DNA from: Planctomycetaceae bacterium | GTDB taxonomy: Bacteria > Planctomycetota > Planctomycetia > Pirellulales > Thermoguttaceae | Assembly: GCA_031257725.1 (NCBI GenBank) | Contig: JAIROD010000815.1 | Coordinates: 1-27,834 of the forward strand | DNA: 27,834 nt | Direction: 5' to 3' | In this document: positions 6,265-27,002 of the stretch, in pieces | Position numbering within the stretch: the stretch's first letter is position 1 | How the letters are laid out: each line of letters opens with the position of its first letter | Translations under genes and position numbers: made by a program | The notes under the pieces: model-generated | What the model was told of the DNA's origin: nothing | Database searches by the model: none | What the model saw: only the letters and a program-made list of their open reading frames with translations

Positions 6265-6684
6265 TTATTTTGGGAAATAGTGTGATTGGTTGCGGCAGAT
6301 TTCATTCAAAATATCATCGGTGTATCCGATAGTTTCAAATATTTTCATTCCTCCGGCGGTAAGATACTCTAATGCGCCGCAACCGATTTTTCCAGTAATA
6401 ATCGCATCGCAGTCACTCAATATATCCAATATTTTGTCAAAGGACTGTTCATGATGTTCAAATTGATTACAACAAGGCTCAACGGTTCTTGTTTCAACAA
6501 AATTATATCCGTTTTCGTTAATTGAAACGATATGAAATTCCTTTGTTCTGCCGAAATGTTGATGAATTGTTTTACCGTCAGAACTGGCAACAGCAATCAG
6601 ATTAGAAATTGTTGCGGATTTTCTATTATCGTCGCCATTATTATTTTTTTCATAAATAGTGATTGGTTTGAATTCCATGATCAT
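6265..6684 (-). CDS. NifB/NifX-family Fe-Mo cofactor-binding domain protein
   Basis: IAVASSDGKTIHQHFG, a C/H-rich loop (PCCNQFEHHE) and DCDAIITGKIGCGA are typical of the Nitro_FeMo-Co domain. ATGA overlap with the upstream gene. Confidence 0.85.
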   Translation of the reverse strand: MIMEFKPITIYEKNNNGDDNRKSATISNLIAVASSDGKTIHQHFGRTKEFHIVSINENGYNFVETRTVEPCCNQFEHHEQSFDKILDILSDCDAIITGKIGCGALEYLTAGGMKIFETIGYTDDILNEICRNQSHYFPK

Positions 6685-7349
6685 CGCTCATTTCTCCTTA
6701 ATTTTGAAATAGTATCATCTAAAAGTTTAACCGCCTGCACCGCATTATTCGCGTAACCGTCGGCTTTTATTTTTGTTGCGAAATCGTGTGAAATCGGTTT
6801 ACCGCCGACCATCACACGAAACCGATTACGTTTATTTTCTGCAACTAATAAATCGATCACCTCTTTGATATTTTTCATTGTTGTTGTCATCAAGGTTGAT
6901 ACGGCGATAATATCAGCGTTCCACTTAACCGCTTCGTCCACAAAAAGGTGTGCCGAAACATCTTTTCCCAAGTCGAGTACTTCATATCCCGCCGAATTCA
7001 AAAATAACGCAACTATATTTTTCCCAATATCATGAGTATCCCCGAAAATCGTACCAAGAACAACTCGTCCTTTGGACAATGGATTTTGTAACAACCCTGT
7101 CCTTAAAATTGCGGCGGCATTTTGTACAGTATCTGCGCAAACGAGAAGATCGGGGATGAAATATTCGCCTGTTTCATAAAGTTGACCGACTTTTGCCATT
7201 CCGCCGCCCAATCCTGTTTCAATTGCTTTCGCGCAATCCAAACCGTTGCGGACAATTATTGTTGCAATCTTTTCCGCCAGCGTTTCGTCCTGATCAACAA
7301 CCGCTTGAGATAATTGTTCAAAAAATTGTTGCTGTGTTAATTCCGTCAT
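6681..7349 (-). CDS. Corrinoid (B12-binding) methyl-carrier protein, MtaC/MttC-like
   Basis: Four-helix cap followed by the DxHxxG motif (GDTHDIGKNIV), STLMTTT and VMVGG. Confidence 0.9.
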   Translation of the reverse strand: MTELTQQQFFEQLSQAVVDQDETLAEKIATIIVRNGLDCAKAIETGLGGGMAKVGQLYETGEYFIPDLLVCADTVQNAAAILRTGLLQNPLSKGRVVLGTIFGDTHDIGKNIVALFLNSAGYEVLDLGKDVSAHLFVDEAVKWNADIIAVSTLMTTTMKNIKEVIDLLVAENKRNRFRVMVGGKPISHDFATKIKADGYANNAVQAVKLLDDTISKLRRNER

Positions 7350-7882
7350 AAAACGCCGTTTGAAATATGTAATAAAAAAATTTTATTTACGGTCGGAGTG
7401 TGGATACATTGATGTCCGATAAAAACAAGTTGTTTCATTTGTGCGTATTCCGATAACACCGACATGTACGGTTTGTCGGGAAACGGAACAAGTTCAACAT
7501 GTACAAAACCGTATTTTTCCAAAGAGAAGGAACTGTAAGGGCAAAGATGTATTACTCCGCCGGAAGTTGTTTTGAGTCCGCTCAAAAGTTGAAATAAATA
7601 CGGCAACGAAAATTCACGAATATGCGTTTCGGATAGTGTAACAGGATTGGCATACGGATCCGCAATGGAAATAATTTGCGGCAAGGCTGTGTTTATTTCG
7701 ATGATTAAATTTGTTGCGATATATTCCAGTTCTTTCTGAACTACAGACTTTTCTTGTTGTAACCGTTTATAAAATGCGAGTCCGTTTTCCGCCTGAGCCG
7801 CAGCCGAAAACGGCGCGGATATTTCCAAAACAAAATCATACTTCTCATGCGTTTCCGCAACACAATATTTCATCGGGTTCAT
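7346..7882 (-). CDS. Short URO-D/MtaA-fold-like protein (partial barrel)
   Basis: ISIADPYANP resembles the IADPTA motif of the MtaA paralogues. Contains IHLCP (HxC) and a distal GHQC. Coupled to both neighbours; only 178 aa. Confidence 0.55.
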   Translation of the reverse strand: MNPMKYCVAETHEKYDFVLEISAPFSAAAQAENGLAFYKRLQQEKSVVQKELEYIATNLIIEINTALPQIISIADPYANPVTLSETHIREFSLPYLFQLLSGLKTTSGGVIHLCPYSSFSLEKYGFVHVELVPFPDKPYMSVLSEYAQMKQLVFIGHQCIHTPTVNKIFLLHISNGVL

Positions 7883-7883
7883 A

Positions 7884-9464
7884 TTAAAACCCCAGTGACG
7901 CTACAAATATTTTTTCAAAATTTTCGTTATTTGCCAGTTCAATTTTTTGTATTTCAGACGCAACATTCAGCATTTTCGTTCTAAAATCGACATTTAACAA
8001 AAAAGCGGTTCCGCCGGATTGAGCGGTGTTACCGACAAACGTTACTTTTCCTTCAAATTCAGGCGGGAGCAAACCAATACTTAAAAGGCTTTTTTCGTTC
8101 AAATGATAACCAAAGGAACCGGCAATTTCGATACGGTTTACTTCTTCTTTCTTGAGATTCATTTTCATTAAAAGAGATTCAATTCCTGAACGAACCGCGC
8201 CTTTTGCCAGTTGAATTTGCCGAACGTCATTTTGTGTCAAATAAACATCGTCGGTAACAAAAAACACTTTTTTCCCGTCTTTTTCCCGTAATCCGTCAAT
8301 TGTTTTTTGTGACGTGAATCTGCCGCTTTTCCCGATAATTCCTTGCCTGACCAATTCGCCGGTTATATCCAAAAGTCCGCTTCCGCAAATTCCTGTTGCG
8401 CGTGTACCGCCGATTACCTGATAATCGATACTTCCGTCATTGTTGATACAAAAACGTTCAACGGCACCGTTTCCGGCGCGCATTCCGCAGGTGATATTCA
8501 TTCCTTCAAAAGCCGGACCCGCCGCCGTTGATGTTGCCGCCAGAGCACCGTTTTTTGCCAAAACCATTTCGCCGTTTGTACCAATATCAATAAATAATAT
8601 TGTTTCTTTTTGTTCATATAATTGTGACGCTAAAATACCGGAGGTGATATCGGCACCGACAAACGCGGAAATTATCGGCGGTAAATAAATCACGCCAAAA
8701 GGCGAAATATTGAGTTTCAATGCGGTAAAATATTCACCGCCGTGAATTTGTGACAGATAAGGATATTGTCCGAGCGGTTTGGGGTCAATTCCGCACGCTA
8801 AATGAAGCATTGCCGTATTGCCGCTGTACACAATTTCATAAATATTTTTCGTACTGATTTTTGCTTTTTCCGAAAGAGTACCGATCATTTCGTTTAATGC
8901 GTCAATCAAAACGTTTTGTAACACGTTCAAACCTTCGTGATTACTTGCGAAATGGATTCTTGAAAGAACATCTTGAGCGTAAGTACTTTGCGGATTCAAT
9001 CTGCTTTCTGAAACAATTTCTTTTCCAGAGGACAAGTTAATTATTGCAACGACTAAAGTTGTTGTTCCGATATCAACAGTAATTCCATAACACGATTTTG
9101 ACGTATCGCCTGATTCCGTACCTAAAGCGGAGTTCCCGCCGTAAACAACTGTTTTTTCACCGTCAAATTGTTTTGAAATGAACGGTTTTAATTGGCAGGA
9201 ACAACTTTGTCCGCCGGACAATATTTGCAACGTTTTATTTTCGTTTTCTTTATTTTCGGTAAAGACAGTGATATTTTCTGTAATATTTTTTTGACAAGCA
9301 AGAAAATAATCGGAACCGATTTTTATTTTACACTTACCGCAAGTTCCCATACCGTTACACGGCGTTTCCAGCACGATTCCCAATTGCCGTGCCGCTTCCA
9401 GGACGGTTGTTCCGTTTGTTACGGAGAGTGTTTTCTGTTCGTTGGCGAAAATAATTTCAGGCAC
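7884..9464 (-). CDS. Reductive activator of corrinoid proteins (RACo/RamA-like; 2Fe-2S plus ASKHA ATPase, DUF4445)
   Basis: N-terminal PCNGMGTCGKC...ACQ [2Fe-2S] motif, plus DIGTTT, DIGTNGE, GPAFEG, GICGSG, AGSFG and GNTA. GTG start with a GGAGG RBS. Confidence 0.92.
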   Translation of the reverse strand: MPEIIFANEQKTLSVTNGTTVLEAARQLGIVLETPCNGMGTCGKCKIKIGSDYFLACQKNITENITVFTENKENENKTLQILSGGQSCSCQLKPFISKQFDGEKTVVYGGNSALGTESGDTSKSCYGITVDIGTTTLVVAIINLSSGKEIVSESRLNPQSTYAQDVLSRIHFASNHEGLNVLQNVLIDALNEMIGTLSEKAKISTKNIYEIVYSGNTAMLHLACGIDPKPLGQYPYLSQIHGGEYFTALKLNISPFGVIYLPPIISAFVGADITSGILASQLYEQKETILFIDIGTNGEMVLAKNGALAATSTAAGPAFEGMNITCGMRAGNGAVERFCINNDGSIDYQVIGGTRATGICGSGLLDITGELVRQGIIGKSGRFTSQKTIDGLREKDGKKVFFVTDDVYLTQNDVRQIQLAKGAVRSGIESLLMKMNLKKEEVNRIEIAGSFGYHLNEKSLLSIGLLPPEFEGKVTFVGNTAQSGGTAFLLNVDFRTKMLNVASEIQKIELANNENFEKIFVASLGF

Positions 9465-9467
9465 GTT

Positions 9468-10490
9468 TCACCCCTCCTTTATTGCGGAAGTGAACGCGGT
9501 AATATTGTTCAACGGCGTGGACGTACTGAGTCCGCAGGCAGGAGCCAAAATATCAATATTTTTTGACAAAAGATGTTTCGCCTGTTTAAACACCGTGTCG
9601 GCGTTACCAAATTCCAATAAATACGTACTGATATTGCCCATCGCCGGCATATTGTCAAGTTCTTTTTTCAACATTGCCAAATCAACAATCGCGTCAACAC
9701 TCAAAACTTTACTGTGCAATTTTTGCAGTTGCGGTTTCACCATTCGGACATCGCCGCAAATATGGACAATAACAGGAACCCCCAATTCATGTACAGAATC
9801 TGTAATTTTGTTCAGATAATAAACCGCGTATTCGTCAAAAATTTTGGGACCAAGAATTTCACCGGTTGCGGTTGGATCAGCGATTGAAATTGCGGCGGCT
9901 CCGTTGTCTGCCATGAGTTTTGCGTAACTAATCAATTGTTCCGTTACATAATCGATCACTTTATGCGCCGCTTCCCGTTCACGGCGCAGTTGTTTCAAAA
10001 AAATCATCGGATCGACAATAGAAGCCGCAGTGCTGATTGGTCCGGTCAGACTTCCAACTGCCGGAATTTCAGGATATTTTTCCGAAAGTAAATAAATCGC
10101 CTGAATTACTGTTTCGGCACGGCTGCTGTTCGCGATTGTTCCGTCAGGTAAAAAAGTTACATCTTTAACCGACGGAAACACTTCTTTTTGTATTTTCGGT
10201 TCACATTCAAGTGAACCGAAATTGATTGAACTGCCAAGTGCTTCGGCTTCCACCGTCATACAAAATGGAATACCAAAATTTTCGAAACCGGTATTTTCAT
10301 AAACATCATAAGCCAAATCACTCATTTTATCGCTTGTATGATGTGCGTCCGGCAATAAATGTCCGGTTTTTGTCATCACATCCACAATCGCGGCATTCAT
10401 CATACCGCCCGGACAAATAACCGGCGGACGATCAACCGTTTCACCGGATAAAGTTTTTTGTAACCTTTCTTTCGGAGAAAAAACATCCAT
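9468..10490 (-). CDS. MtaA/CmuA-family methylcobamide methyltransferase (URO-D fold)
   Basis: SPKERL start, PFCMTVEAEALG, GPISTA, IADPTA, and Zn-ligand motifs HICG and APACG. Confidence 0.9.
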   Translation of the reverse strand: MDVFSPKERLQKTLSGETVDRPPVICPGGMMNAAIVDVMTKTGHLLPDAHHTSDKMSDLAYDVYENTGFENFGIPFCMTVEAEALGSSINFGSLECEPKIQKEVFPSVKDVTFLPDGTIANSSRAETVIQAIYLLSEKYPEIPAVGSLTGPISTAASIVDPMIFLKQLRREREAAHKVIDYVTEQLISYAKLMADNGAAAISIADPTATGEILGPKIFDEYAVYYLNKITDSVHELGVPVIVHICGDVRMVKPQLQKLHSKVLSVDAIVDLAMLKKELDNMPAMGNISTYLLEFGNADTVFKQAKHLLSKNIDILAPACGLSTSTPLNNITAFTSAIKEG

Positions 10491-10495
10491 AATCG

Positions 10496-11146
10496 TTACC
10501 TCCCAACCAATTCGTTTGCCATTTTAATTGCCTGATTCGCGTTGGACGAATAACCGTCGGCACCAATTTGGTCCGCAAATCGCCGCGACACCGGACCGCC
10601 GCCAATCGCCACCTTAAATTCGTTACGGATTCCTTTCTCGTTCAATATATTGATCACATCCGCCATGCCATCCATTGTTGTTGTCATCAGCGATGAAATC
10701 ATAATAATTTTTGCATTTTCCTGAACTGCACGCTCAACAAATACGGAAGGAGGAACATCTCGTCCTAAATCGATCACGTCAAATCCGGCGGAGGAGAGCA
10801 TAAGTTTAACGAGATTTTTTCCAATATCATGCGTATCACCCGCGATAACACCGATAACAATTTTATGCTTTTTTTCTTGACGTTCTGTTTTAATGTACGG
10901 TTTCAATATTTCAACACCGGCATTCAATGCGTCCGCGCACATGAGTAATTCCGGTACGAAATATTCTCCATCGTCAAAAAGCCGTCCCGCTTGTTCCATC
11001 CCTTTGGCAAGTCCCAGATCAATCGCTTCGAATGCGTCGTAACCGGATTCAACCGCTTCATTCGATAATTGTGCGGATAACTCCTCTTCCATATTAACAA
11101 CAGCATCGGACATCTCCGAATATAATTCATCTTTAGTTTTGCCCAT
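10496..11146 (-). CDS. Corrinoid (B12-binding) methyl-carrier protein, MtaC/MttC-like
   Basis: EYFVPELL, GDTHDIGKNLV (DxHxxG), SSLMTTTM and IGGGP. Confidence 0.92.
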   Translation of the reverse strand: MGKTKDELYSEMSDAVVNMEEELSAQLSNEAVESGYDAFEAIDLGLAKGMEQAGRLFDDGEYFVPELLMCADALNAGVEILKPYIKTERQEKKHKIVIGVIAGDTHDIGKNLVKLMLSSAGFDVIDLGRDVPPSVFVERAVQENAKIIMISSLMTTTMDGMADVINILNEKGIRNEFKVAIGGGPVSRRFADQIGADGYSSNANQAIKMANELVGR

Positions 11147-11261
11147 AATAAAAAAACTCCATCAAAAATAAATTATTGTAATAGTTTATTTTTTATAACC
11201 ATTCACGTCATATTGGTGTCAGGCAGGTGTTCTTGCAGTACAACAGGTATTGAATCCTGCT

Positions 11262-11459
11262 AACGCCGTTAGGCGTTCTCTGTGAATAACCGCCGGTTTC
11301 AACCGGCGGAAAGTACCGTGTTACACTCCCCCCCTTTAGGTGTTGTCCTAAAAAATATCGCGCCTTTTGTGGACAACCCCTAAAGGGGTTGTTGGTCAAT
11401 GGGGCTTTTACCGCCGGTTAACACCGGCGGTTATTCATAGTAAACGCCTAAAGGCGTTT
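11262..11459. repeat. About 200-bp nested-palindrome element (REPIN/MITE-like)
   Basis: Imperfect ~50-bp terminal inverted repeats (AACGCC.TTAGGCGTT...GAATAACCGCCGGT..AACCGGCGG), each itself palindromic. Inner inverted repeat CCCCTTTAGG(T/G)GTTGTCC at 11331-11348 and 11371-11388. Confidence 0.8.
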
Positions 11460-11491
11460 GTCCAATTTAACCATTATCAAATAAAAAAAAA

Positions 11492-12856
11492 TTAACGTTG
11501 TGCTGCGATAACGGAAAGTAAATCTTCGATGAGTGACAAACTGCCGTCATAACCGGCGTATCCGCGATTCAACACAATACGGTTTCCCACCGGATAACTT
11601 ACCGTAAGATGTCCTGCACCGATATCTGTTGCAAATTCACGTTCCAGATGACTGCCGATCACAAAACCCGGTGAAAAATCATCTTGATACAAACGGTCGG
11701 ATTTTCTTGGTACGATTTTCCAAAAATGCGTTTTGATTTCCGTCGGATCGGATTCATAAGCAATCGCGGTCGGATATTGGGAAGTCAATGTTTCAATAAC
11801 ACTGCTGATTTTCGGTTTTTGTTCTTCATCGACATTATTGGTAACAACCATTAATTCCGGCAGCCAGCCGAAATCGTCTGCAAGAAATTTCGTAATAGCA
11901 GGCGCATAATTAACATCGCCCACAACAACCGCGTAACGCTGCCAGTCAAGATCATTGTAAGCGTCCGCGACTCGTTCCAAATAACGGAAATAATGTTTTG
12001 TTTCCGTCTCGATGAGTTGTTGTACAATATCTTGCGGAATTTCAAGAATTTCCGCAACATTTTTCAAAAAGGCTTCTGTTGACGTGGGTCCGATAGGAAA
12101 GGGATTGGTAATATAAGGAATTTGATGTATTTTCTTAAAGGCGTTTGCAGCGTCTTGAGCGTAAAATTCCGAAACGACAATCGTCAACGCCGCATCGCCT
12201 GCGTTGCGGATACTATTTAATGTATCATATTCGGTAAAGAACGAATTAACTTCCAATCCTAATTTTTCCAATAAGGTACGAATTTTTAACAGATTACCGC
12301 GCCAAAAAGCGTCTTGCCCCGGCACCACACCTAACAAGTTGACTTTATTTTTCTTTTTAACTTTTTGTTTTTCGATAAATTCCCGTATGAGAACAGTCAA
12401 TACAAGATCGTAACCTTTATAACCGTCTCCATGAAAACCGCCTGTTTCCGTACCGATAATTTCGGTTCCTTCTTCACGATATTGCCGGACAATAGATTGT
12501 ATATCGTCACCGATAATATCAGCGGTACAGCCTGTGAGAATAATGTACAATTTCCCTTCGACTAATTCGATTGTATTTTTTACTTGTTCTTCCAACCGTT
12601 CTAAACCGCCGAAAATGATGTCTTTTTCTTGAATATTGGAACTCGGCACCGCCAAGCCGCCGCAATATCCCGCGCCCAAATAACCGGTACTTCCATATTG
12701 GTTCCAATAAATACTTCCGCCGCATCCCATCGCGGTATGTAATATCGGTACGGTTTCCGGTAATGCCGTAACCGTAATCAACGCGCCGCCCAAAGAACAA
12801 AATGATCTTGGTCTTTCGATAAAACGTTTATTTGTATTAGTTATATACGTATTCAT
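11492..12856 (-). CDS. Nitrogenase-like component 1 beta subunit (NifK-like; group IV/MarK-like)
   Basis: Three P-cluster-type cysteines (FCSLGG C20, HTAMGC C45, TGCTADIIGDD C110), short N-terminus, and C-terminal VSYPVGNR...GYAGYDG. Confidence 0.9.
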   Translation of the reverse strand: MNTYITNTNKRFIERPRSFCSLGGALITVTALPETVPILHTAMGCGGSIYWNQYGSTGYLGAGYCGGLAVPSSNIQEKDIIFGGLERLEEQVKNTIELVEGKLYIILTGCTADIIGDDIQSIVRQYREEGTEIIGTETGGFHGDGYKGYDLVLTVLIREFIEKQKVKKKNKVNLLGVVPGQDAFWRGNLLKIRTLLEKLGLEVNSFFTEYDTLNSIRNAGDAALTIVVSEFYAQDAANAFKKIHQIPYITNPFPIGPTSTEAFLKNVAEILEIPQDIVQQLIETETKHYFRYLERVADAYNDLDWQRYAVVVGDVNYAPAITKFLADDFGWLPELMVVTNNVDEEQKPKISSVIETLTSQYPTAIAYESDPTEIKTHFWKIVPRKSDRLYQDDFSPGFVIGSHLEREFATDIGAGHLTVSYPVGNRIVLNRGYAGYDGSLSLIEDLLSVIAAQR

Positions 12857-14370
12857 TGATCATCGCCTCCTTGAATATATTTGAACGGATTTTCCGAATA
12901 CCAAAATTCCTTGTACGGCTGGCGGGCATGTTTCGATAAATGTTCGTTGAACGACGAATTTTTCAAATGCCGTTTCAAACGCCGCGCAATATCATAAGCA
13001 CCGGCGTAACCGCTGTAAATACTATTTGTTCCATAAATTGGTAAAACGGCAACGCCGCATTTTGCCGCCCAGATGTTGTCGGAATTATGACCGATATAAA
13101 TGTCCGGTTTTGTACGGTAAATAAGATTGACGGCTTCAAAAGGCTGTGCGGTGGCGACATTGATACGAATTTTAGGATTGATCTTTTCAAGTTTTTCAAT
13201 TTCGACTCCGCCGAATTGATCATAGTGATAAGGACGCACCGCTAAAATTTCCATGCCTAATTCTTGCAACAACACGGCAGTTGCAAGTGTACGAATTTCA
13301 CCGGCACTCAGCATTGCTGTTTTCCCTTTCAGATAAGGAAGCAACGGTTTCAACGACTGATTTAATTCATCGGTTTCCGATTTAATGATACGTTCCGCCG
13401 CATCGGTCAATCCAAGTTTTTTGGCAACTTGACGAAGCCAAAGTGAAGTATTTTCGATACCGATAGGCATTTGACCGCCTACAAAAGGAACTCCAAATTT
13501 TTGTTCCAGATAAGTCATAAAGTAATCGTCATGAGTTGGACAAACGCCGATTGATAACGCCGCAAACGGAGCAAGGCGAAAAGCGTCGGGATGAGCGTCG
13601 CAAGGTAACATATTCACCTCAAGTCCCAACTTATTCAAGAGCCGCGTCAATTCCTTCTGATCCGGTCCCGTCATCGACGATACATTCAGAAGATTAACCA
13701 ACCGGCTCCGCCGTAACTTTTCCGATGTTACCGAAATTTCATTATCATACACATTAAATTCCGTTTCATCTTTTCCGTCAGTCATGTTCCGCAAAAAAGA
13801 ATGAAAAATCGCGTCATAAGCGGTTGCCATAATTTTTGTTTTAAAACCTTCGCAATGAATCGGTAAAATTGTTGCGGAAACCTGATCTTTCAAATTATCG
13901 GCAACTCCGTCAATATCATCGCCGATAATTGCGGGCACACAAGTTGACAGAACAATAATTGCGTCCGGTCGGTAACGTTTATCGGCTTCGACAATACTAT
14001 GTTTCAATTTTTCTTCTCCGCCGGACACGACATCACTTTCACTCAAATTTGTCGAGAGCCAAAGTGCGCCTTTCGGATTTTTGATACCGCTGTTAAACTG
14101 ACCGACGCGCACACTTGCACCTTGTGAATGTACTGCGCCGCCGCAGCCGACCGCACCATGCACAATAACAACACAATCTTGTAACGACGTTAAAATTGCT
14201 GTTGCAGGAAGAAGTTGACAAATCGTTCCTTGACTAAACGCACGGCGTTTGTTTTTCAGACAACCGCCGCAAAACTGTTTATGAATTTCGCCCACCGTAC
14301 CGCCAAATTCGATACAACTTCCCAATCGTTCTTCGCGCCGCGGCGCAACTTTTTGTTTTAAATAATTCAT
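12853..14370 (-). CDS. Nitrogenase-like component 1 alpha subunit (NifD-like; group IV/MarD-like)
   Basis: P-cluster-type cysteines (TICQ, HGAVGCG, STCVPAIIGDD), HCEGF, and cofactor-type Cys in GVCPTHDDY. Start placed at 14370 (GGAGG RBS, ATGA overlap with the upstream stop); the ORF track gives 14385. Confidence 0.9.
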   Translation of the reverse strand: MNYLKQKVAPRREERLGSCIEFGGTVGEIHKQFCGGCLKNKRRAFSQGTICQLLPATAILTSLQDCVVIVHGAVGCGGAVHSQGASVRVGQFNSGIKNPKGALWLSTNLSESDVVSGGEEKLKHSIVEADKRYRPDAIIVLSTCVPAIIGDDIDGVADNLKDQVSATILPIHCEGFKTKIMATAYDAIFHSFLRNMTDGKDETEFNVYDNEISVTSEKLRRSRLVNLLNVSSMTGPDQKELTRLLNKLGLEVNMLPCDAHPDAFRLAPFAALSIGVCPTHDDYFMTYLEQKFGVPFVGGQMPIGIENTSLWLRQVAKKLGLTDAAERIIKSETDELNQSLKPLLPYLKGKTAMLSAGEIRTLATAVLLQELGMEILAVRPYHYDQFGGVEIEKLEKINPKIRINVATAQPFEAVNLIYRTKPDIYIGHNSDNIWAAKCGVAVLPIYGTNSIYSGYAGAYDIARRLKRHLKNSSFNEHLSKHARQPYKEFWYSENPFKYIQGGDDQ

Positions 14371-15422
14371 AATGAACTCCTCCATTTACGCGATGCTGTA
14401 ACAAACGCTCGTACATTTTCTTCGGATACCTTTGCGGAAAGATCGCAACCCGGTAATAACATAAATCCGCCGTCTCCGGCAGCATCATCCAAACATTTTT
14501 GTGTTTCAATATAAATTTCATCGGCGGTTTTTTCTTCAAGAACAAACACCGGATTCACGTTTCCCGCTAAACCGATTTTTCCGTATAATATCTGTTTTGC
14601 GTTTCGTAAATCAACCTTGCTGTCCACTGAAACCATTTGGATTCCTGTTTGCGGTAACAAATGTAAACGGTCGGAAATATTGCCGCAAATATGAATCAAA
14701 GAATGTTTCTGATACGACTTTAAACGTTGTATCACCGCCATAAGATAAGGAATAACAGCATATTCAAAATGACGTACAGAAACAACATCGCCCGACGCAC
14801 TAGGATCCGCAATAAAAATACCGTCAATTCCATCAACCTGCAACATAAATTCAAAATAAGCAACAGAAATATCTGTTGTAAAAGCGAGCAGTTTTTCCGC
14901 AAACAGTTTATTTTTGTACAACGATTTCGACAATGTTTCCAAACCTAATAATTGTCCCGCTAATGTGAACGGGGCACGTCCGCTGACAAATAAACTTCTC
15001 GGATTGTTGTTCTCTGGATTTTCGTTCAGTTTTACCGTTTCCTCCGCAACCGCTTTTAACCACTTTATTTTTTCAGATTGAAACACACTTTGTAAATCAA
15101 GCTGATCAATGTCTTCCGGCGAACTAATAAGTAATGAATCAATTTCCGGCGCACCTTTTTTTGTAAATTGAATTTTTCCTCCCAACGCTTCAACTAAAAA
15201 GGCGGTTGCGCCGGTTCCAACCGTAACAAAATCCGCGCCGACTCTTTCATTGACACGATAAAAAATTTCAGCAGCGCGAGACGGCGGAGAGGATAATAAT
15301 TCCTGTAACGAAACGCCTTCCACGAAAAAAGGCCAACTCCCGCCAAGACAAACTCCCACCGGAACCCGTTCCGGTTTTTTAAGAGCAAATACCTCTGTTA
15401 TAATTTTTCTTGATGTGGACAT
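14367..15422 (-). CDS. URO-D-fold MtaA/CmuA-like methyltransferase
   Basis: PERVPV, RAPFTLAGQL, IADPSASGDVVS, HICG, GNVNP and LPGCD. Probable start MSTSRK at 15422, because the ORF-track extension to 15488 is made of 9-bp repeats. Confidence 0.85.
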   Translation of the reverse strand: MSTSRKIITEVFALKKPERVPVGVCLGGSWPFFVEGVSLQELLSSPPSRAAEIFYRVNERVGADFVTVGTGATAFLVEALGGKIQFTKKGAPEIDSLLISSPEDIDQLDLQSVFQSEKIKWLKAVAEETVKLNENPENNNPRSLFVSGRAPFTLAGQLLGLETLSKSLYKNKLFAEKLLAFTTDISVAYFEFMLQVDGIDGIFIADPSASGDVVSVRHFEYAVIPYLMAVIQRLKSYQKHSLIHICGNISDRLHLLPQTGIQMVSVDSKVDLRNAKQILYGKIGLAGNVNPVFVLEEKTADEIYIETQKCLDDAAGDGGFMLLPGCDLSAKVSEENVRAFVTASRKWRSSL

Positions 15423-15452
15423 TTTTTTATTTCGTAAAGTTAAGTTAGGGTT

Positions 15453-15530
15453 AATGGACATAATGGACATGATAGACACAATGAACATGATGGGACAATG
15501 ATACGAAAATAGTATTTTTAAAGGGTTCCC
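15453..15530. repeat. 9-bp-period GGACA repeat array with a GGGAAC...TAAAAAT-type terminus
   Basis: AATGGACAT AATGGACAT GATAGACAC AATGAACAT GATGGGAC, followed by ATTTTTAAAGGGTTCCC. Related arrays occur at 17026, 19711 and 27281. Confidence 0.6.
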
Positions 15531-15603
15531 TAATGTTTAAAGTCGCCGGATAAACCGCCTACCGGATAGAAATCAGCCAACTGTTCCACAAAAGGTGAAA
15601 CAA

Positions 15604-16926
15604 TCAGGAATTTTCCAAATACCGTTCCCGTTCCCAATCTGTAACATTTATATCGTGAACGGAAATATCGAAATGAATTAATTCACTGAAAATTTCAACA
15701 AATTCCTTGCCGAAATATTCAACCGCTTTTTCACTTTTGTCAAACAAAATTGCCGCGTCTTTTAATGTCCGCGGAATAGCGGGAAGCGTTTCATTAAAAT
15801 AACCGTTGCCTTCGATAATTTCCGGAGCCGGTAATTTTTGTTCCAAACCGTATAATCCCGAAGCAATAGAAGCCGCAATCAGGAAATAAGCGTTTGCATC
15901 CGCAGCACCGGTGCGCTGTTCAATTCTCGTACTATTTCCATAACCAACCAATCTCGTTGAAACCGTTCTGTTATCGTAACCAATTCCAACTCGCGTCGGA
16001 GCAAACGACATGTCCGTGAGACGTTTGTAAGAATTAACCGTAGGACAACACAACGCCATCAATTCACGTGTTCCGTCAAGAAGTCCCGCCGAATATTGTT
16101 CCAGTATCGTTTTGTCCTCCGCAAAAGCATTTTTTGAAACTCCATTGTTTTCCTTCGTCCATAAACTTTGATGTAAATGGTAACCGCTGCCCGATTCCGT
16201 ATTCCAAACCCGCGCCATAAATGTTGCGTACATCCCATTTTTTCGTGCAATTTCTTTAATTGCGTTACGAGCAATCACCGTGTTGTCCGCATTCGTCAGC
16301 GCATCGGAAAATTCCAGAATCACTTCCATCTGACCAGGACCATATTCCGTATGAACCGCCTCAATCGGAATTTGAAACGCCTCCAAATTATTTTGAATCT
16401 GTTCAATAATATCACTGTACTGACTCGCTTTTCCAATAGAATAAGTTTCCTTGCCGCCGAAAAGCGGTTTTTTGTTACTGTCCAGAAGATAAAACTCAAC
16501 TTCCGATCCCACTTTCGCCGTATAACCTGTTTTTTCAAGCCGTTCCAGTACATTTTTCAGAATTTGCCGAGGCGCAACCTGAATACGTTGTCCTTTATCC
16601 GTATCAAGATCGGCAAGAACAAAAGCAGTTCCTTTACGCCAAGGAATTTCCCGTAACGTGGAATAATCCGGTTTCAAAATCATATCCGACGCACCATACT
16701 CAAAACCCGCAAAAGAAGAGGTCGAAAAATATTCCGACTGAACATCCCACGTCAACGGCGCACGGCATAACCCGGTGCCGGATGTTAAATGTTCCAGTAA
16801 AAACCGAGACGGTAAACGTTTGCCAATAATGGAACCGTTAATGTCCGCAAATCCAACTTCCACCGAATGGATTTTATGTTCCAAAATATATTCTTTCGCT
16901 TGTTCCAATTCTTGTAATGAATACAT
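15604..16926 (-). CDS. Glutamine synthetase-like protein (probable gamma-glutamyl-amine ligase, PuuA/GmaS-like rather than GlnA)
   Basis: GSEVEFY, HTEYGPGQME, GSGYHLHQSLW, NSYKRL, DNRT and RIEQR motifs. It lacks the GlnA FDGSS ammonium-site motif and the adenylylation loop. Confidence 0.85.
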   Translation of the reverse strand: MYSLQELEQAKEYILEHKIHSVEVGFADINGSIIGKRLPSRFLLEHLTSGTGLCRAPLTWDVQSEYFSTSSFAGFEYGASDMILKPDYSTLREIPWRKGTAFVLADLDTDKGQRIQVAPRQILKNVLERLEKTGYTAKVGSEVEFYLLDSNKKPLFGGKETYSIGKASQYSDIIEQIQNNLEAFQIPIEAVHTEYGPGQMEVILEFSDALTNADNTVIARNAIKEIARKNGMYATFMARVWNTESGSGYHLHQSLWTKENNGVSKNAFAEDKTILEQYSAGLLDGTRELMALCCPTVNSYKRLTDMSFAPTRVGIGYDNRTVSTRLVGYGNSTRIEQRTGAADANAYFLIAASIASGLYGLEQKLPAPEIIEGNGYFNETLPAIPRTLKDAAILFDKSEKAVEYFGKEFVEIFSELIHFDISVHDINVTDWERERYLENS

Positions 16927-17025
16927 TGTATTTCTTAAAATTTGTTTTTATTGGTAATCGTTTTGTTAAAAAACACGGTTGGAAATAATGTTGCGTTTTT
17001 TGGGGGATTCAATTGACTTAAAAGT

Positions 17026-17056
17026 GACATTAGGGACAGTGGAGACACTAGGGACT
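17026..17056. repeat. 9-bp-period GGACA repeat array
   Basis: GACATTAGG GACAGTGGA GACACTAGG GACT, between cysK and the GS-like gene. Confidence 0.5.
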
Positions 17057-17116
17057 ATTTTTTTTTTTGAACGATTATTGTTTTTATCATTATCATTATC
17101 ATTATTTTTATTATTA

Positions 17117-18064
17117 CTATTTTTTAAATGGGTTATCAAAAAGCGGTGTGGATAAATAACGTTCTCCGGTGTCGGGAAGAAGAACCACGATTGTTTTGTC
17201 CTTATTTTCGTTGCGTTTTGCAATTTGTAACGCGGCGAACGCTGCTGCGCCGGAGGAGATGCCGACGAGTAATCCTTCTTGAGTTGCCAACTCGCGCGAA
17301 GTTTCAAACGCTTCGTCATTTTTGACACGAAAAATTTCGTCAACTACCGACAAGTTCATAATTTCCGGAACAAATCCTGCTCCGATTCCCTGAATTTTAT
17401 GCGGTGCCGCCGCTCCGCCGGATAAAACCGGTGAATCGTCCGGCTCCACCGCAACAATTTTTACGGACGTTTTTTTCTCTTTGAGCACTTCGCCAACACC
17501 GGTAATTGTTCCGCCGGTTCCAACTCCACCGACAAAAATATCAACTTCGCCTTCGGTATCGTTCCAAATTTCCAACGCGGTTGTTTCACGATGTATTTTC
17601 GGATTCGCCGGATTACGAAATTGTTGCGGACAATAACTGTTCGGAATTTGTGCGGCGATTTCTTCCGCTTTACGGATTGCACCTTTCATTCCTTCACTGC
17701 CGGAAGTCAACACCAGTTCCGCTCCGAGTGCTTTCAACAAATTACGCCGTTCAATACTCATTGTTTCCGGCATCGTGATAACAATTTTGTAACCTTTCGC
17801 CGCAGCCACAAATGCAAGTCCAACACCGGTGTTACCGCTGGTTGGTTCGATGATGACGGAATCTTTTTTCAAAAGTCCTTGTGCTTCGGCGGCTTCAATC
17901 ATTGCCAACGCAATACGGTCTTTCACACTGCCGGCAGGATTGAAAAATTCCAATTTCGCTACCAATTTCGACTTCACGCCTTGATCCGTTCCGAATTTTT
18001 TCAGTTCCAGCAAAGGCGTATTACCAATAAGTTCCGTTAAACTCTGTTTATAAATGACTGTCAT
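17117..18064 (-). CDS. cysK: Cysteine synthase A (O-acetylserine sulfhydrylase)
   Basis: PLP lysine in NPAGSVKDR, plus [23 protein letters not shown] and PDTGERYLS. Confidence 0.95.
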
Positions 18065-18282: not shown

Positions 18283-19143
18283 TCACCACGACGGTAATAA
18301 CACTTCTTTTCCGTCAAAGGTATCTTTGAGGGCTTGTTTAACGGCATCGGTTTTGTACGCTTTTTCCAAAATCCGTACTTTTTCCGATCCTAAATTTTCT
18401 TTACGTACAGCAATGATATCCGGTGCTTGTAACTCCTTGCGTTCACCAGCCAAAGCATCTTTGCCAAATTCCAAACCGATTTCCGACGCAACCGTCGCGT
18501 AAAGAAAACCGGCGTCCGCTTCCTCCAACGCTTTAGCCAACATCGTGTAATCAACCTCGATAAACTTCAATTTTTTCGGATTATCGACGATGTCTTTTTT
18601 TGTAATGCTAATTGGATTGACTCCTTCTTTTAACTTAATCAAACCGGCATCCGCCAGAATCACAAACGCACGAAAATTGTTTCCGGGATCATTGGCAATT
18701 GTGATCGTTGCCCCTTCCGGCAGGTCTTGCAAGTTTTTATGTTTCTTTGAAAACAAACCCGCTCGATCCGTAAACACTTCAAACGCAACAGCAAGATTAC
18801 CTTTATGTGTTGCGTTAAATTCGTTCATGTACGGTGCATGCTGGTGATAATTTGCCAAATATTCACCACGCTCAACCGCTTCATTAAGCTGCGTGTTGTC
18901 CGCAAGGAACGTGTATTGCAATTTGTAACCAAGCTTCTCAACCTCCTGAGACAAAACTTTCGTCGTGTCTTCATAGGCTTTCAAGTTACACGATGCAAAT
19001 TTGATAACCTTATCGCTCTGCTCGGTTTGACTCTGCTTTCCGCCGCATCCTGTCAATATCGGTAACGTTAAAAATATTACCGAAGAAAGAATCGTTACAA
19101 CAAACGTTGTTGTAAAAAGTGTTGTGAAATGTTGTCTTTTCAT
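18283..19143 (-). CDS. metQ: MetQ/NlpA-family ABC substrate-binding lipoprotein
   Basis: Lipobox LTGC, YHQHAPYMNEFN, TIANDPGNNFRA, DIVDNPKKLKF. Family assignment is firm; the ligand is not. Confidence 0.85.
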   Translation of the reverse strand: MKRQHFTTLFTTTFVVTILSSVIFLTLPILTGCGGKQSQTEQSDKVIKFASCNLKAYEDTTKVLSQEVEKLGYKLQYTFLADNTQLNEAVERGEYLANYHQHAPYMNEFNATHKGNLAVAFEVFTDRAGLFSKKHKNLQDLPEGATITIANDPGNNFRAFVILADAGLIKLKEGVNPISITKKDIVDNPKKLKFIEVDYTMLAKALEEADAGFLYATVASEIGLEFGKDALAGERKELQAPDIIAVRKENLGSEKVRILEKAYKTDAVKQALKDTFDGKEVLLPSW

Positions 19144-19387
19144 TTTCTTTACCTCATTGGGTTAAAAATTGTTAACGGAACAGGAAACAATTCCCCGATC
19201 CTTTTCGTATGCTTCTCTTTCAGGGGCGAAGGAGTTTTCGTTAAATTTAGGTGAATATACTCGTTATACTTGAGTTTTCTGTTTCTATAACGGCAACATC
19301 CCGTTGCCGTGAATTTCTTTCGGCAGCGAGGACGTGACCGTTACTGATGAGGACACTACCGTTACGATTTGTCAAAATATTATTAAA

Positions 19388-19403
19388 CGCAAAAAACGTG
19401 CCA
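19388..19403 (-). promoter_or_regulatory. sigma54 (-24/-12) promoter for the metQ-cysK-...-nifX-like operon
   Basis: Minus strand reads TGGCAC-GTTTT-TTGCG, a near-perfect match to TGGCAC-N5-TTGCW. Confidence 0.8.
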
Positions 19404-19504
19404 GTTTTGTGATTAAATTGTTAAAGTTTTAAATTGAGCAGTAAAAAACGGAGTAATTCGTTGATAACTTGCTAAATTTAAAAGACTTAAAGCAAAACAT
19501 ACTA

Positions 19505-19520
19505 TGTAACTATGTTTACA
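19505..19520. promoter_or_regulatory. TGT-N10-ACA site (NifA-type upstream activator sequence candidate)
   Basis: TGTAACTATGTTTACA lies about 100 bp upstream of the sigma54 box, inside the perfectly conserved core. Identical copy at 27104-27119. Confidence 0.5.
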
Positions 19521-19773: not shown

Positions 19774-19778
19774 TAATT

Positions 19779-21791: not shown

Positions 21792-21812
21792 CATTAACAG
21801 TCTATTTTAATT

Positions 21813-21929: not shown

Positions 21930-22592
21930 TCAAATCCTTTTATCTAATTTTTGGGCAATAATTCTTCCTACTGTCTGAATTGCCTGCACGAGCAAAATGA
22001 TTAGGATAACGGTAAAAATCATTACTTCGGGCTGGTAGCGGTAATATCCGTAACGTATCGCGAAATCGCCGATTCCGCCTCCGCCGACAAGACCGGCAAC
22101 TGTTGAGTAGGAAATAAAGTTGATGCTGATTAATGTTGCAGAGCTAACCATGCCGGAACGGGCTTCACGGTACAACACTTTCCAAATAATCTGATAAATG
22201 TTCGCACCGGCTGCTTCCGCCATCTCAATCACTCCACGATTTACTTCAAGCAACACCTGTTCAATAAGCCGTGCAAAATCCGGTGTTGCACTAATCGTTA
22301 ACGGTACAATAACCGCCGTTGTTCCAAGCGATGTACCAACAATTAACCGCGTCAACGGAATAATTGCAACAAGAAGTACAAGAAACGGAAATGACCGGAT
22401 AATATTGACCATTGCGTCCAACACTAGGTAAATTCGCTGCTTCTGCATCATCGACCCCGGACGGATCAAATAAAGATACGTGCCAAGAGGAATACCAAGT
22501 ATCGCCGCAATACTCAACGTAAAAAACATCATATAAAATGTTTGCCCGAATGCTGTCGTAATTTGGGGCATGAGTTCCCATATTTTGTTCAT
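21930..22592 (-). CDS. metI: MetI-family ABC transporter permease
   Basis: NIIRSFPFLVLL, an EAA-like loop (EMAEAAGA) and GGGGIGDFAIRYGYYRYQ. Start at 22592 with a GGAGGAG RBS; the ORF track starts at 22616. Confidence 0.92.
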   Translation of the reverse strand: MNKIWELMPQITTAFGQTFYMMFFTLSIAAILGIPLGTYLYLIRPGSMMQKQRIYLVLDAMVNIIRSFPFLVLLVAIIPLTRLIVGTSLGTTAVIVPLTISATPDFARLIEQVLLEVNRGVIEMAEAAGANIYQIIWKVLYREARSGMVSSATLISINFISYSTVAGLVGGGGIGDFAIRYGYYRYQPEVMIFTVILIILLVQAIQTVGRIIAQKLDKRI

Positions 22593-22662
22593 TAAATTTC
22601 TCCTCCATATAATCAAATGATCCGGCGGTTACACACCTCTCACGCCTGATAGGTTAATATTG

Positions 22663-23697
22663 TTATAAAAGGCAGCTGTATTTTCTTGTTGCAGCAACCA
22701 TTGCCTTTAGATTTTCGATACGAATGTTCGGGGAAAGTCCGCATCCGGGCTGAATAATAACGCCTGTCTTGTACTTTAATTTTCCAATTGTTTCCTTCAA
22801 ACGAGCATCAACCGTATTAACGTCACCCAAATACAACGTGTCCGCCGGATCAACTCCGCCCGCAACCGCAAAACGTTTCACAAATATCTTTTGCGCAACA
22901 TCCAAATCCACCAATTCACTAAAATATAAAATGTCGGCACCCGTCTTTCCCACCAAATCAATAATAGGATATTCCCCGCCGCAAGGATGATATAACGTCA
23001 TTGCTCCGGTTTGCTTAAAACCTTGTATGGTTTTCGTCAAATAAGGAAGTGCTAACTCGGCATATATCGCAGGGGAAATACAGGAAGGCGAGGATGTCCC
23101 ATCGCCAATACTGAGCAAATCCGCTCCGGCATCCACAAAATGTTGCGCAAGTTGTATCTGTAAGTCGGCAATACGATCACATATCCGATGAACCAAAGGT
23201 TTATTTTTTCGGGTAGAACCCAAAAGAACTTCCAACCCCAAAAGACGTGCCGCTAAATTGAATACTCCATAAGAATTTACCTCCAACGTAACACGCTCGC
23301 CAATTGCTTTTTTTATCTGCCGCACCGTCGTCAACAACGCTTGCACAAACTCGTTTTTCAACGCATCGGAAAAATCCAACTTATCCACCTCTTCAATACT
23401 AAAAACCGTCGGCACTCCAAATTGCGGATGATCGTTCTCTGGCCAGTTCAACCGTGCGCCCAAAACATCCTGAGTCGCCGGCGCAAGATTCAAACAAATA
23501 ACATCATCATCAACCGCTTCATACATCGCAAGCTCCGATTGAGTCATCGCCTCCGCATCGAGAAAATAATCCCGATTCAATTTTCTACCAATTAACGCCG
23601 GTCCCAACGGCGACTTGTTCCCAAACACCGGAATATAATCCACCGGCTTCCAATGCACCGCCGCCCAAACCCGTTCTTTTGAAGTCATCGTCATCAA
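22663..23697 (-). CDS. URO-D-fold MtaA/CmuA-like protein
   Basis: TSKERV start, GVFNLAARLLG, SIGDGTSS, YHPCGG (HxC), GGVDP and QPGCG. Confidence 0.85.
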   Translation of the reverse strand: MMTMTSKERVWAAVHWKPVDYIPVFGNKSPLGPALIGRKLNRDYFLDAEAMTQSELAMYEAVDDDVICLNLAPATQDVLGARLNWPENDHPQFGVPTVFSIEEVDKLDFSDALKNEFVQALLTTVRQIKKAIGERVTLEVNSYGVFNLAARLLGLEVLLGSTRKNKPLVHRICDRIADLQIQLAQHFVDAGADLLSIGDGTSSPSCISPAIYAELALPYLTKTIQGFKQTGAMTLYHPCGGEYPIIDLVGKTGADILYFSELVDLDVAQKIFVKRFAVAGGVDPADTLYLGDVNTVDARLKETIGKLKYKTGVIIQPGCGLSPNIRIENLKAMVAATRKYSCLL

Positions 23698-23700
23698 TCT

Positions 23701-25083
23701 TTAATCCTCTCTTTTTATTGTTTCACAACTTGAATCTTTCCCGCGATTCAAACTTTTATGGGGATTACTCCCGTAACTCCTAATATGTTCCCAACCTCGA
23801 TAGGGTGTCGATTGAGGATTTTGTTCCAACATTTTGGCTTCGTCAAAATATTTTTGAATATCATGGTTACGGTAAATATTACGATCTTCTCCAATCGGAC
23901 AAACCTTCATGCACGCATAACACGGATTTTTGTAATCAGCCGCCAACTTCACATTATAAGCACAACATTGACAATCATTGACCACTCTTGCTCCGCTAGG
24001 ACAAATCAATAAACAATTAAAACACTCGTTGCATAAATTTGACCGCTTGGAGAAATCGGACAAATTAACGTTAGTAAAATCAGTGTCTGTAGAATCAACA
24101 TGAGCAAAATAAACGTTGCTAAAATTGGTGTTATCAAAATTATTGTTCGCAAAATCAACGTCGGCAGAAAATGAAGTAACAATTGCCGTCAACTTTATCC
24201 GCATACCAAATTCCGGTGTAATCAAATGTCCGTTTCTTCCGATAAAACCCAAACCTGAACGAACTCCCCATTCCGTAACCTGCCGCTCCTCCCAACTTGT
24301 AATTTCCGCAAATTCACCGATATCGTTCAAATAATTGGCAAGACGTATTGCCGCTTTATCTAAAACCATTTTTACCGTTTTGTCATGTTCCAATCCCCAA
24401 ATAGACGGAGCAGTTTCAATAATCGGTAAAAGAAACGGAACTCCCAAAATAATGACAGTTTTACCCAGTGGATAAGAAAAGTAAGTATCGCTTTCCCGCT
24501 CTGATTCCCATTTGGCCAATCCGCATAACGGTGTTTTTGCAACAATTTTAATGTTTTCCGCTGTTAATGGTTGATCCTTTAACAGTTGTCGATATTGTGT
24601 AATTTCTTGAAACGTAAATCGATAGGTTGTCAAAACCGATGTTGTAATCAGTTCGCCCATACCTGCAAGATTTCCGGCAATCTCATGGTTATAAACCAAA
24701 ATGATTGCGTTCTTTTTTGCGAGTGAACCATCGCTGTCGCGGGGAATGTACACCGAAGGACAACCGTTTTCGTTCAATAATTTTGCAAGTTGATAAGCGG
24801 TTTCATCCAATATCTCATTTATCGTACATTCATTTACCGTACATTCCTCACGCCGTCTCATACCGATAACAATTACTGTTTCTGTACCAGACCATATTGC
24901 GCCGGGACATAAATGTTTCGGAATATCCGCCGCATCACACCATCTGGAAACCGGAACAAAAGCAATTGCCGAAATTCCAAAATTCCGCGCCCGACCGCAT
25001 ATCTGTTTCGTTATTTCGTCTTGATTTATTTGATTCATTATGATTTGGTAATATTTCAGTTGTATCAAAAATATCGTTGTCAT
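23701..25083 (-). CDS. QueG/reductive-dehalogenase-like Fe-S protein with a partially duplicated N-terminal domain
   Basis: The AIAFVPVSRW...TVIVIG domain recurs in degenerate form mid-protein. Also GLGFIGRNGHLITPEFG, CxxCxxCxxxCP...C...CxxCxxxCP and C-terminal WEHIRSYGS. Confidence 0.75.
   Translation of the reverse strand: MTTIFLIQLKYYQIIMNQINQDEITKQICGRARNFGISAIAFVPVSRWCDAADIPKHLCPGAIWSGTETVIVIGMRRREECTVNECTINEILDETAYQLAKLLNENGCPSVYIPRDSDGSLAKKNAIILVYNHEIAGNLAGMGELITTSVLTTYRFTFQEITQYRQLLKDQPLTAENIKIVAKTPLCGLAKWESERESDTYFSYPLGKTVIILGVPFLLPIIETAPSIWGLEHDKTVKMVLDKAAIRLANYLNDIGEFAEITSWEERQVTEWGVRSGLGFIGRNGHLITPEFGMRIKLTAIVTSFSADVDFANNNFDNTNFSNVYFAHVDSTDTDFTNVNLSDFSKRSNLCNECFNCLLICPSGARVVNDCQCCAYNVKLAADYKNPCYACMKVCPIGEDRNIYRNHDIQKYFDEAKMLEQNPQSTPYRGWEHIRSYGSNPHKSLNRGKDSSCETIKRED
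24052..24156 (-). repeat. In-frame 15-bp/pentapeptide repeat insertion (7 units)
   Basis: DFANN NFDNT NFSNV YFAHV DSTDT DFTNV NLSDF, immediately before the first Fe-S motif. Confidence 0.7.
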
Positions 25084-26986: not shown

Positions 26987-27002
26987 TACAAAAACCGTGC
27001 CA
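26987..27002 (-). promoter_or_regulatory. Putative sigma54 promoter for the metN operon
   Basis: Minus strand reads TGGCAC-GGTTT-TTGTA; positionally equivalent to 19388-19403. Confidence 0.65.

Follow-up and report, generated by a model that had tools for sequence, protein, structure and literature searches.

The stretch of DNA analysed here (27,834 nt, contig JAIROD010000815.1 of assembly GCA_031257725.1; hereafter the window) comes from a termite-gut Planctomycetaceae bacterium and carries an operon in which a pair of nitrogenase-like genes, nflD and nflK (D and K below), stands within a set of genes for corrinoid-dependent methyl transfer. The same operon holds cysK, a glutamine synthetase (GS)-like ligase gene and the genes of a methionine-type importer. 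Gene identities were taken from the list of open reading frames (ORFs) and from Pfam and NCBIfam scans of the window proteins (Table 1). An earlier reading of this DNA from its letters alone (the sequence-only reading) had named eleven genes in the region, and all of them were found, all on the minus strand. At most operon junctions the genes overlap, by 4 or 19 nt, or are separated by 1–5 nt. By their coordinates, the D/K, short URO-D/corrinoid B and corrinoid B/NifX-like pairs each overlap by 4 nt, and the Mlp373 and D genes by 19 nt; the true start of Mlp373 is probably an internal Met near 15422. The K/corrinoid A junction, with a gap of 345 bp, stands out from this pattern.

Table 1. Features of the operon, with candidate hydrolases of related loci (positions are those of the window unless a locus is named).
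Feature	Position	Strand	Evidence or remark
Promoter block copy A	26988..27119	-	Upstream of metN; sigma54-like -24/-12 element and TGT-N10-ACA palindrome
metN, ABC ATPase of methionine-type importer	26192..26944	-	TIGR02314, 309 bits; contiguous with metI and metQ in relatives
Fe-S/Fe-S/Mlp insertion between metN and metI	22663..25874	-	Pfam/NCBIfam; missing there in L011, L012, L015 and L016
metI, permease	21930..22616	-	NF008049, 187 bits
Promoter block copy B (sigma54 and TGT-N10-ACA)	19389..19520	-	Upstream of metQ
metQ, NlpA-family substrate-binding lipoprotein	18283..19143	-	Pfam/NCBIfam
cysK, O-acetylserine sulfhydrylase	17117..18064	-	TIGR01139, 472 bits, above equivalog cut-off
GS-like ATP-dependent ligase	15604..16926	-	Gln-synt_C; below GlnA cut-offs
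Mlp373, URO-D/MtaA-like Zn methyltransferase	14367..15488	-	Pfam/NCBIfam; Zn ligands kept
NflD, nitrogenase-like alpha subunit	12853..14385	-	Oxidored_nitro
NflK, nitrogenase-like beta subunit	11492..12856	-	Oxidored_nitro
Palindromic MITE-like repeat in K-corrinoid spacer	11262..11458		Copy number, depth
Corrinoid protein A, B12-binding_2 and B12-binding domains	10496..11146	-	DTHDIG motif
Mlp340, MtaA/MtbA-like methylcobamide:thiol methyltransferase	9468..10490	-	PRK06252, 387 bits, above cut-off
RACo/RamA-type ATP-dependent corrinoid reductive activase, N-terminal 2Fe-2S domain	7884..9464	-	Pfam/NCBIfam
URO-D-like protein, truncated, 178 aa	7346..7882	-	His-x-Cys present; C-terminal Cys gone
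Corrinoid protein B	6681..7349	-	DTHDIG motif
NifX-like cofactor-binding domain protein	6265..6684	-	Pfam/NCBIfam
Class II amidotransferase-only protein	L012:3473-4315, L013:5716-6558, L015:2902-3753		Candidate gamma-glutamyl hydrolase
Peptidase_C26 protein	L014:6814-7524, L038:12901-13617		Candidate gamma-glutamyl hydrolase

The D and K products are related to methylthio-alkane reductase (Mar). Their closest chains in the PDB were MarD and MarK of Rhodospirillum rubrum (9D9U/9FMG; 206 bits for D and 258 bits for K), of which 9FMG is cited in a paper on the structure of that enzyme, and Nif and NifEN chains reached at most 113 bits. The best NCBIfam match of D was NifE, at 196 bits against a cut-off of 505, with NifD at 146 bits against 654; the scores of D and K against the Bch and Cfb families were far lower than those against NifE/NifD. 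Canonical NifDK, VnfDK, AnfDK or NifEN identity was rejected, as the scores lie below the curated cut-offs and D falls outside the Nif/NifE-like rows of the trees. The separation of the pair from Nif and NifEN, on which the sequence-only reading depended, thus agrees with the family cut-offs, the PDB scores and the D trees. Like the MarBHDK enzyme (Rhodospirillum rubrum, Group IV-C; 9FMG, 9D9U), the pair keeps six P-cluster Cys and the Cys/His cofactor pair. In D, the P-cluster ligands are Cys56, Cys81 and Cys149, and K has three invariant Cys spaced as Cys32, Cys56 and Cys121 of MarK; D Cys282 and His433, the predicted ligands of an [Fe8S9C] cofactor, align with MarD Cys270 and the loop-I ligand His429. 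Predicted P-cluster and L-cluster-type ligands are also common to the Group IV-A Nfa enzyme of Endomicrobium proavitum and other Group IV systems. The window pair differs from Nfa in its context, which consists of sulfur genes and not nitrogen genes, and no named Nfa stands on our tree.

The genes around D and K encode a methyl-transfer module of thiol type. Mlp340 aligns over its full length with Methanosarcina MtaA (PDB 4AY7, 170 bits) and keeps the Zn ligands, a His-x-Cys and a C-terminal Cys; the His-Cys-Cys set is also present in Mlp373 and Mlp344, and both corrinoid proteins carry the DxHxxG motif. There are three full-length URO-D paralogues and one truncated form, which is kept in close relatives. 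The fourth URO-D/MtaA-like protein, Mlp344 (344 aa; His-x-Cys...Cys), sits on a long branch and is encoded in the insertion between metN and metI, together with two adjacent QueG/RdhA-like Fe-S proteins of 264 and 460 aa. In a URO-D tree of the related loci, two conserved types were resolved: Mlp340 represents the type next to RACo, and Mlp373 the type next to DK. Mlp340 groups with the RACo-adjacent Mlp of Geomesophilobacter and Moorella (Shimodaira-Hasegawa-like approximate likelihood ratio test, SH-aLRT, 100) in this tree, which was built without named Mlp1/2/3 references. The URO-D fold, the His-x-Cys...Cys ligands and the DxHxxG corrinoid partner are shared with MtsA/MtsB, the methylthiol:coenzyme M methyltransferase, and with MtaA/MtbA of Methanosarcina. 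In contrast to those systems, the window module has no methanogenesis or coenzyme M context and comprises three to four divergent paralogues, one of them coupled to a nitrogenase-like enzyme. No pterin-binding or MetH-type domain, as expected of a folate methyltransferase, was found among the scanned window ORFs.

The association of D and K with this module is conserved across genomes. Scanning species-representative genomes with D returned seven loci (D identity 67–90%), located in three Planctomycetaceae metagenome-assembled genomes (MAGs) with termite-gut-style names, Lachnospiraceae bacterium ZAX-1, a Bacillota MAG, a Clostridia bacterium and a Deltaproteobacteria MAG. The order metN-metI-metQ-cysK-GS-Mlp-D-K-corrinoid-Mlp-RACo-short URO-D-corrinoid was recovered in six of the seven loci (tblastn with all window proteins), and the seventh, a short contig, carries the central part of the operon. 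We further read the neighbours within 10 kb of D in six loci of the same D clade with lower identity (48–61%). Corrinoid, URO-D and RACo genes were present in Geomesophilobacter (D 52%), Moorella (D 50%) and metagenome scaffold L039 (D 52%), and corrinoid and URO-D genes in scaffold L038 (D 59%). The Pelotomaculum locus (D 61%) had URO-D and GS-like genes only, with a transposase gene after D, and the Gottschalkia locus (D 48%) had neither corrinoid nor URO-D genes. Overall, corrinoid and URO-D genes lie within 10 kb of D in 11 of the 13 loci of this NflD clade, a PALP/CysK gene occurs in almost all related loci, and orthologues of Mlp373 adjoin D in L011, L034, L038 and L039. The conserved gene order rejects a chance juxtaposition of D/K and the corrinoid module, and the linkage that had been proposed from the window alone is therefore real. 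At the level of sequence, a functional linkage of D/K, the B12 module and CysK is strongly supported. Identities this high between phyla suggest that the cluster was passed between lineages as a unit.

The sequence-only reading had taken the coupling of these two modules to be undescribed. This part of it does not hold, as the coupling was already proposed by Kountz and Balskus (bioRxiv 2023, 10.1101/2023.07.31.551370): their "non-selenium type I mlp gene clusters" contain or adjoin MarHDK-like genes, along with CysK, methionine transporters and methionine-salvage genes. In their proposal, which is in essence the mechanism of the sequence-only reading, the Mar-like enzyme may generate methyl-sulfide as a methyl donor, so supplying methanethiol to the corrinoid proteins, and breakdown of a thioether yields a free thiol and a methyl group bound to the corrinoid (10.1101/2023.07.31.551370). 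The nitrogenase-like enzymes linked to these clusters were called Group IV-A, and Geomesophilobacter sediminis Red875 is listed in the supplementary table as having a non-selenium cluster (10.1101/2023.07.31.551370). In the Red875 assembly, we found the 52% identical relative of D, a member of the same clade as window D, adjoining a corrinoid-Mlp-Mlp-RACo run. A 2026 Chem Rev review does not mention corrinoids.

Judged by its genes, the window operon is a new member of the non-selenium type I mlp class, a class that is itself defined by bioinformatics only. Both share corrinoid proteins with a RACo activase, a His-Cys-Cys Zn sphere and the lack of a folate methyltransferase, and in both the cluster contains or adjoins genes for MarHDK-like proteins, CysK and methionine transporters. 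The subclade to which the window belongs, in which about 16 genes follow a fixed order, adds the GS-like ligase, a second corrinoid protein and the truncated URO-D. The window copy has lost nflH and nflB and gained the Fe-S/Fe-S/Mlp insertion, the repeat and a second sigma54 block. For most type I mlp clusters a role in methyl-selenium salvage has been proposed, in which the Mlps would demethylate methylselenol or dimethylselenide. ClMlp2 does methylate selenide, and the sdm genes of M. voltae are needed for dimethylselenide use. For the window, however, we regard such a role as very improbable: its genome (75% complete) has no SelD above cut-off, the cluster contains cysK and metNIQ and no sel genes, and the related Geomesophilobacter and Moorella clusters fall in the non-selenium clade.

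The operon is best read as one for organic-sulfur salvage by a Mar-related nitrogenase-like enzyme within a non-selenium type I mlp cluster, because a Mar-related D/K pair is linked to a thiol-type B12 module, CysK and MetNIQ. We assign this reading a probability of about 0.62. The steps of the route are all inferred from sequence. A MetNIQ-type ATP-binding cassette (ABC) importer would take up an amino-acid-like methylthio compound, and NflDK, with its predicted P-cluster and L-cluster-type cofactor and reduced by a NifH-type ATPase, would reductively cleave a C-S bond. Mlp373, Mlp340 and the two corrinoid proteins, the latter held in the Co(I) state by RACo, would demethylate methanethiol or the thioether as such and move the methyl group to a second thiol, and CysK would fix the freed sulfide as cysteine. 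The C-S cleavage and demethylation pathway suggested earlier for this DNA is thus retained in so far as a Mar-related D/K pair is linked to Zn-dependent MtaA-like proteins, corrinoid proteins, RACo, CysK and MetNIQ, but not in its novelty. MetNIQ genes are found both in the window operon and in L035, a Mar-type metagenome cluster. The window D/K pair lies inside a corrinoid module, whereas no corrinoid or URO-D gene is present in the part of L035 that was read.

Several observations weigh against organic-sulfur salvage of this kind; they concern the D protein itself, the substrate and methyl acceptor, and the partners of the enzyme. Our D trees were built from 50%-identity representatives and contain P0158 as a verified anchor of the MarD clade (616 bits to 9FMG_A). 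The Mar anchor alone was confirmed, via the PDB, and the rows hold no named Nfa or Isr anchor. Window D forms part of its own clade (SH-aLRT 99) and lies outside the R. rubrum MarD clade, here the one in which P0158 groups with a protein of contig C510 of the same genome (SH-aLRT 100). The sister clade of the window clade lacks most of the cluster ligands. Identity to Mar is about 33–35%, and the five residues of the Mar pocket are not kept in D (Cys73 to Ala63, Gln74 to Ile64, His194 to Ile185, Trp195 to Met186 and Phe199 to Tyr190). The resulting Ala/Ile/Ile/Met/Tyr pocket, more hydrophobic than that of Mar, is common to members of the clade down to 48% identity. The C510 protein (C510:533-2080), in contrast, is a MarD-type D with the exact Mar pocket C-Q-H-W-F. 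Because the two proteins belong to separate clades and have different pockets, window D and C510 D are, from their sequences, functionally distinct paralogues.

The literature on Mar points the same way. Activity on dimethyl sulfide (DMS), ethyl methyl sulfide (EMS) and methylthioethanol is restricted to Group IV-C systems, and nitrogenase-like systems of other groups had no Mar activity on these three compounds in R. rubrum (PMC13753814). The reactions of the other Group IV clades are unknown, nearly all of them stand beside sulfur genes, and the residues that fix Mar specificity are not yet defined (PMC13753814). The sequence-only reading had proposed that D/K frees methanethiol or another thiol. 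The pair is indeed Mar-related, but it belongs to another clade, its pocket differs and non-IV-C systems are inactive, so that methanethiol release from volatile thioethers is suggested by analogy and not by membership. With regard to the substrate, the type of transporter differs among the relatives (MetNIQ, NMT1-type or an amino-acid permease), and the substrate is therefore not fixed. In addition, no final methyl acceptor is encoded.

The order of the two reactions may also be reversed. In that case, the Mlp and corrinoid proteins would first demethylate an imported amino compound bearing an S-methyl group (methionine, S-methylcysteine or a gamma-glutamyl derivative), and NflDK would then desulfurise the resulting thiol, delivering sulfide to CysK. 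The hydrophobic pocket of D, the translational coupling of an Mlp to D with its conserved position beside DK, and the location of cysK close upstream of DK are consistent with this order, and in R. palustris growth on the dithiol ethanedithiol requires a Mar homologue (10.64898/2026.08.20.746119). Even so, we consider demethylation as the first step rather unlikely, since no nitrogenase-like enzyme is known to desulfurise homocysteine-like thiols and the opposite order fits the same gene content equally well.

The third group of objections to the salvage reading, in which NflDK acts on the C-S bond, comes from the partner genes. In the relatives, corrinoid B is followed by nflH, a NifX-like gene and a radical-SAM NifB core gene, and the orthologous operons of L011, L012 and L015 contain both nflH and nflB. 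In the window, nothing separates corrinoid B from the NifX-like gene, which it overlaps, and beyond them lies a porin gene on the opposite strand. Neither NifH nor NifB is encoded in the window, as had been stated before; orthologues of nflH and nflB were not found in the assembled genome (75% complete), and tblastn detected no nflB remnant downstream of the NifX-like gene. By comparison with its relatives, which keep them, the window copy has lost both genes. Relative to the minimal set marBHDK, it is without genes for a dedicated reductase (MarH) and a dedicated maturase (MarB). Absences from a genome only 75% complete weigh little, and this incompleteness is itself a weakness of the reading. 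The junction without nflH is also present in the independent runs X2 and X3, which represent diverged strains from other samples. An assembly artefact as the source of the missing nflH was rejected because these contigs span the same junction. In run X3, the sequence downstream of the NifX-like gene (6243) joins 5018 in the opposite orientation; the porin region is inverted or rearranged at the level of strains.

With nflH and nflB lost, the enzyme would rely on NifH-like and NifB proteins encoded elsewhere. A NifH-like gene on C26:4082-5056 is only 45% identical to the operon-type NflH of the relatives, so cross-reactivity has to be assumed, which also counts against the salvage reading; the protein shares 64% identity with the NifH-like protein from a Mar-type cluster. 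A fused NifB is encoded on C625:2053-3327 (38% identical to the operon-type nflB product), a possible K partner on C836:2789-4171, and canonical nif-like genes on C786, C219 and C434. Sharing of such partners has precedents: in Heliophilum, several NflDK pairs rely on a single NflH (PMC9147875), and NifB can stand in for MarB (PMC13753814). D and K look to be under purifying selection, with ratios of nonsynonymous to synonymous substitution rates (dN/dS) against the sister MAG of 0.09 and 0.11, respectively, and a window branch that is short and not lengthened. This pattern fits a D/K pair still in use with partners encoded elsewhere in the genome.

The K/corrinoid A gap, about 20 bp long in the relatives, contains an element of about 200 nt in the window (MITE/REP-like, i.e., resembling miniature inverted-repeat transposable and repetitive extragenic palindromic elements). 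It has two 51-nt arms that are 86% complementary, each with short hairpins, matches 108 contigs of the same genome and reaches a depth about 65 times that of its flanks in metagenome runs. The gap was considered as a terminator and rejected as such; no hairpin with a T-run was found in it, and it holds this high-copy palindromic repeat. Together with the presence of nflH and the radical-SAM gene nflB in L011, L012 and L015 but not in the window, and the lack of their orthologues in the assembly, the insertion between K and the corrinoid gene would suit a stranded remnant, in which D/K has ceased to be matured or reduced and the B12/CysK part alone still works. We judge this improbable. Both D and K are intact with every ligand present, their dN/dS of about 0.1 and unlengthened branch speak for constraint, the arrangement persists in the diverged strains from other samples, NifH-like and NifB genes exist elsewhere in the genome, and a quarter of that genome (25%) is missing from the assembly.

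Expression of the operon is probably driven by sigma54 together with an enhancer-binding protein that recognises TGT-N10-ACA, as judged from the promoter sequences. The sole perfect match in the window to TGGCAC-N5-TTGC lies at 19403-19389 on the minus strand, 245 nt upstream of metQ, which bears out the sigma54 promoter predicted there, and a TGT-N10-ACA palindrome is found about 100 nt further upstream (19520-19505). A second copy precedes metN, with a sigma54-like element TGGCACGGTTTTTGT at 27002-26988 and a palindrome at 27119-27104. The two promoter copies are 87% identical over 193 nt, and the palindrome TGTAAACATAGTTACA is identical in both. The duplicated region spans 19384-19850 and 26983-27506 in blocks of 193, 41, 32 and 57 nt (86–91% identity). 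In the sister MAG L011 the block occurs once, upstream of metN, with the same palindrome and a -24/-12 element. A weaker sigma54-like site is present at 26229-26215. The metI and metQ genes of the window are split by an EcoRI-type adenine methyltransferase gene on the plus strand (region 19993-21398). Part of this region (19993-20430) has an 81% identical copy on contig C138 and about 10-fold excess depth, and it contains a short repeat that occurs on many contigs.

Such a promoter, with its TGT-N10-ACA site, might instead indicate a nitrogen role under NifA-type control, in which NflDK would reduce a nitrogen compound or cleave a C-N bond and the GS-like ligase would capture the ammonia or amine. 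The ligase gene does lie within the operon, a NifA-like activator is encoded on C777 (462 bits, below cut-off), and Group IV-A Nfa has been implicated in N2 fixation. We nevertheless find this role highly unlikely: the Zn sites belong to the thiol type, the genes that constantly accompany the clade are those for CysK and sulfur transporters while the GS-like gene is confined to one subclade, and the genome already has canonical nif genes.

The GS-like ligase is not a bona fide GlnA, an identity that was rejected because its scores lie below both equivalog cut-offs (239 bits against 429 for type I and 221 against 470 for type III). A search of the ESM Atlas returned only "glutamine synthetase family". 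In the relatives whose D is at least 59% identical, its gene adjoins cysK or the DK-adjacent Mlp gene. Within the salvage route, the probable task of the ligase is to join glutamate to a substrate or intermediate that carries an amine group. Candidate gamma-glutamyl hydrolases of two unrelated kinds occur in five GS-containing loci (Table 1), and this recurrence in GS-bearing cluster copies hints at a gamma-glutamylated intermediate; both kinds are missing from the window and its genome. As a speculative extension, which we consider distinctly unlikely in its full form, the GS-bearing subclade might run a gamma-glutamyl cycle on an amine-bearing organosulfur compound, with NflDK and the Mlp/corrinoid proteins acting on the conjugate. 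The ligase would glutamylate the substrate or an intermediate, such as S-methylcysteine made by CysK from methanethiol, and the hydrolase would free glutamate after the NflDK and Mlp/corrinoid steps. If true, nitrogenase-like enzymes would gain a new class of substrate, and methyl-sulfur would reach cysteine by a new route in which no volatile intermediate is set free.

The flanks of the operon contain further repeats and paralogous genes. A fragment of an ISH6/ISKra4-family transposase gene lies at the window edge (27443-27832). A repeat of about 48 nt occurs just downstream of metI (21875-21922) and of metN (26130-26177), with inverted copies at 509-547, 21505-21538 and 21808-21838. At the other end, two inverted paralogous genes at 714-2075 (minus strand) and 4619-5971 (plus strand) are 70–82% complementary over most of their length; the product of the latter is a BBP2 beta-barrel porin. 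They enclose a CN-hydrolase gene (formamidase/amidase-like, 2725-3642) and a small ORF.

The operon is compact, has been transferred widely and is strongly conserved, and it points to the likely partners of one non-Mar nitrogenase-like clade, namely thiol-type B12 methyltransferases, CysK and a GS-like ligase. Natural comparisons are also at hand, since complete cluster copies retain nflH and nflB, the window copy lacks both, and its genome encodes a true Mar paralogue as well; the 2023 hypothesis of corrinoid-dependent methyl-sulfur dismantling is therefore directly testable. If the salvage reading is true, it would add a further anaerobic route of sulfur acquisition, possibly with the release of methane or other hydrocarbons, in gut and sediment communities.

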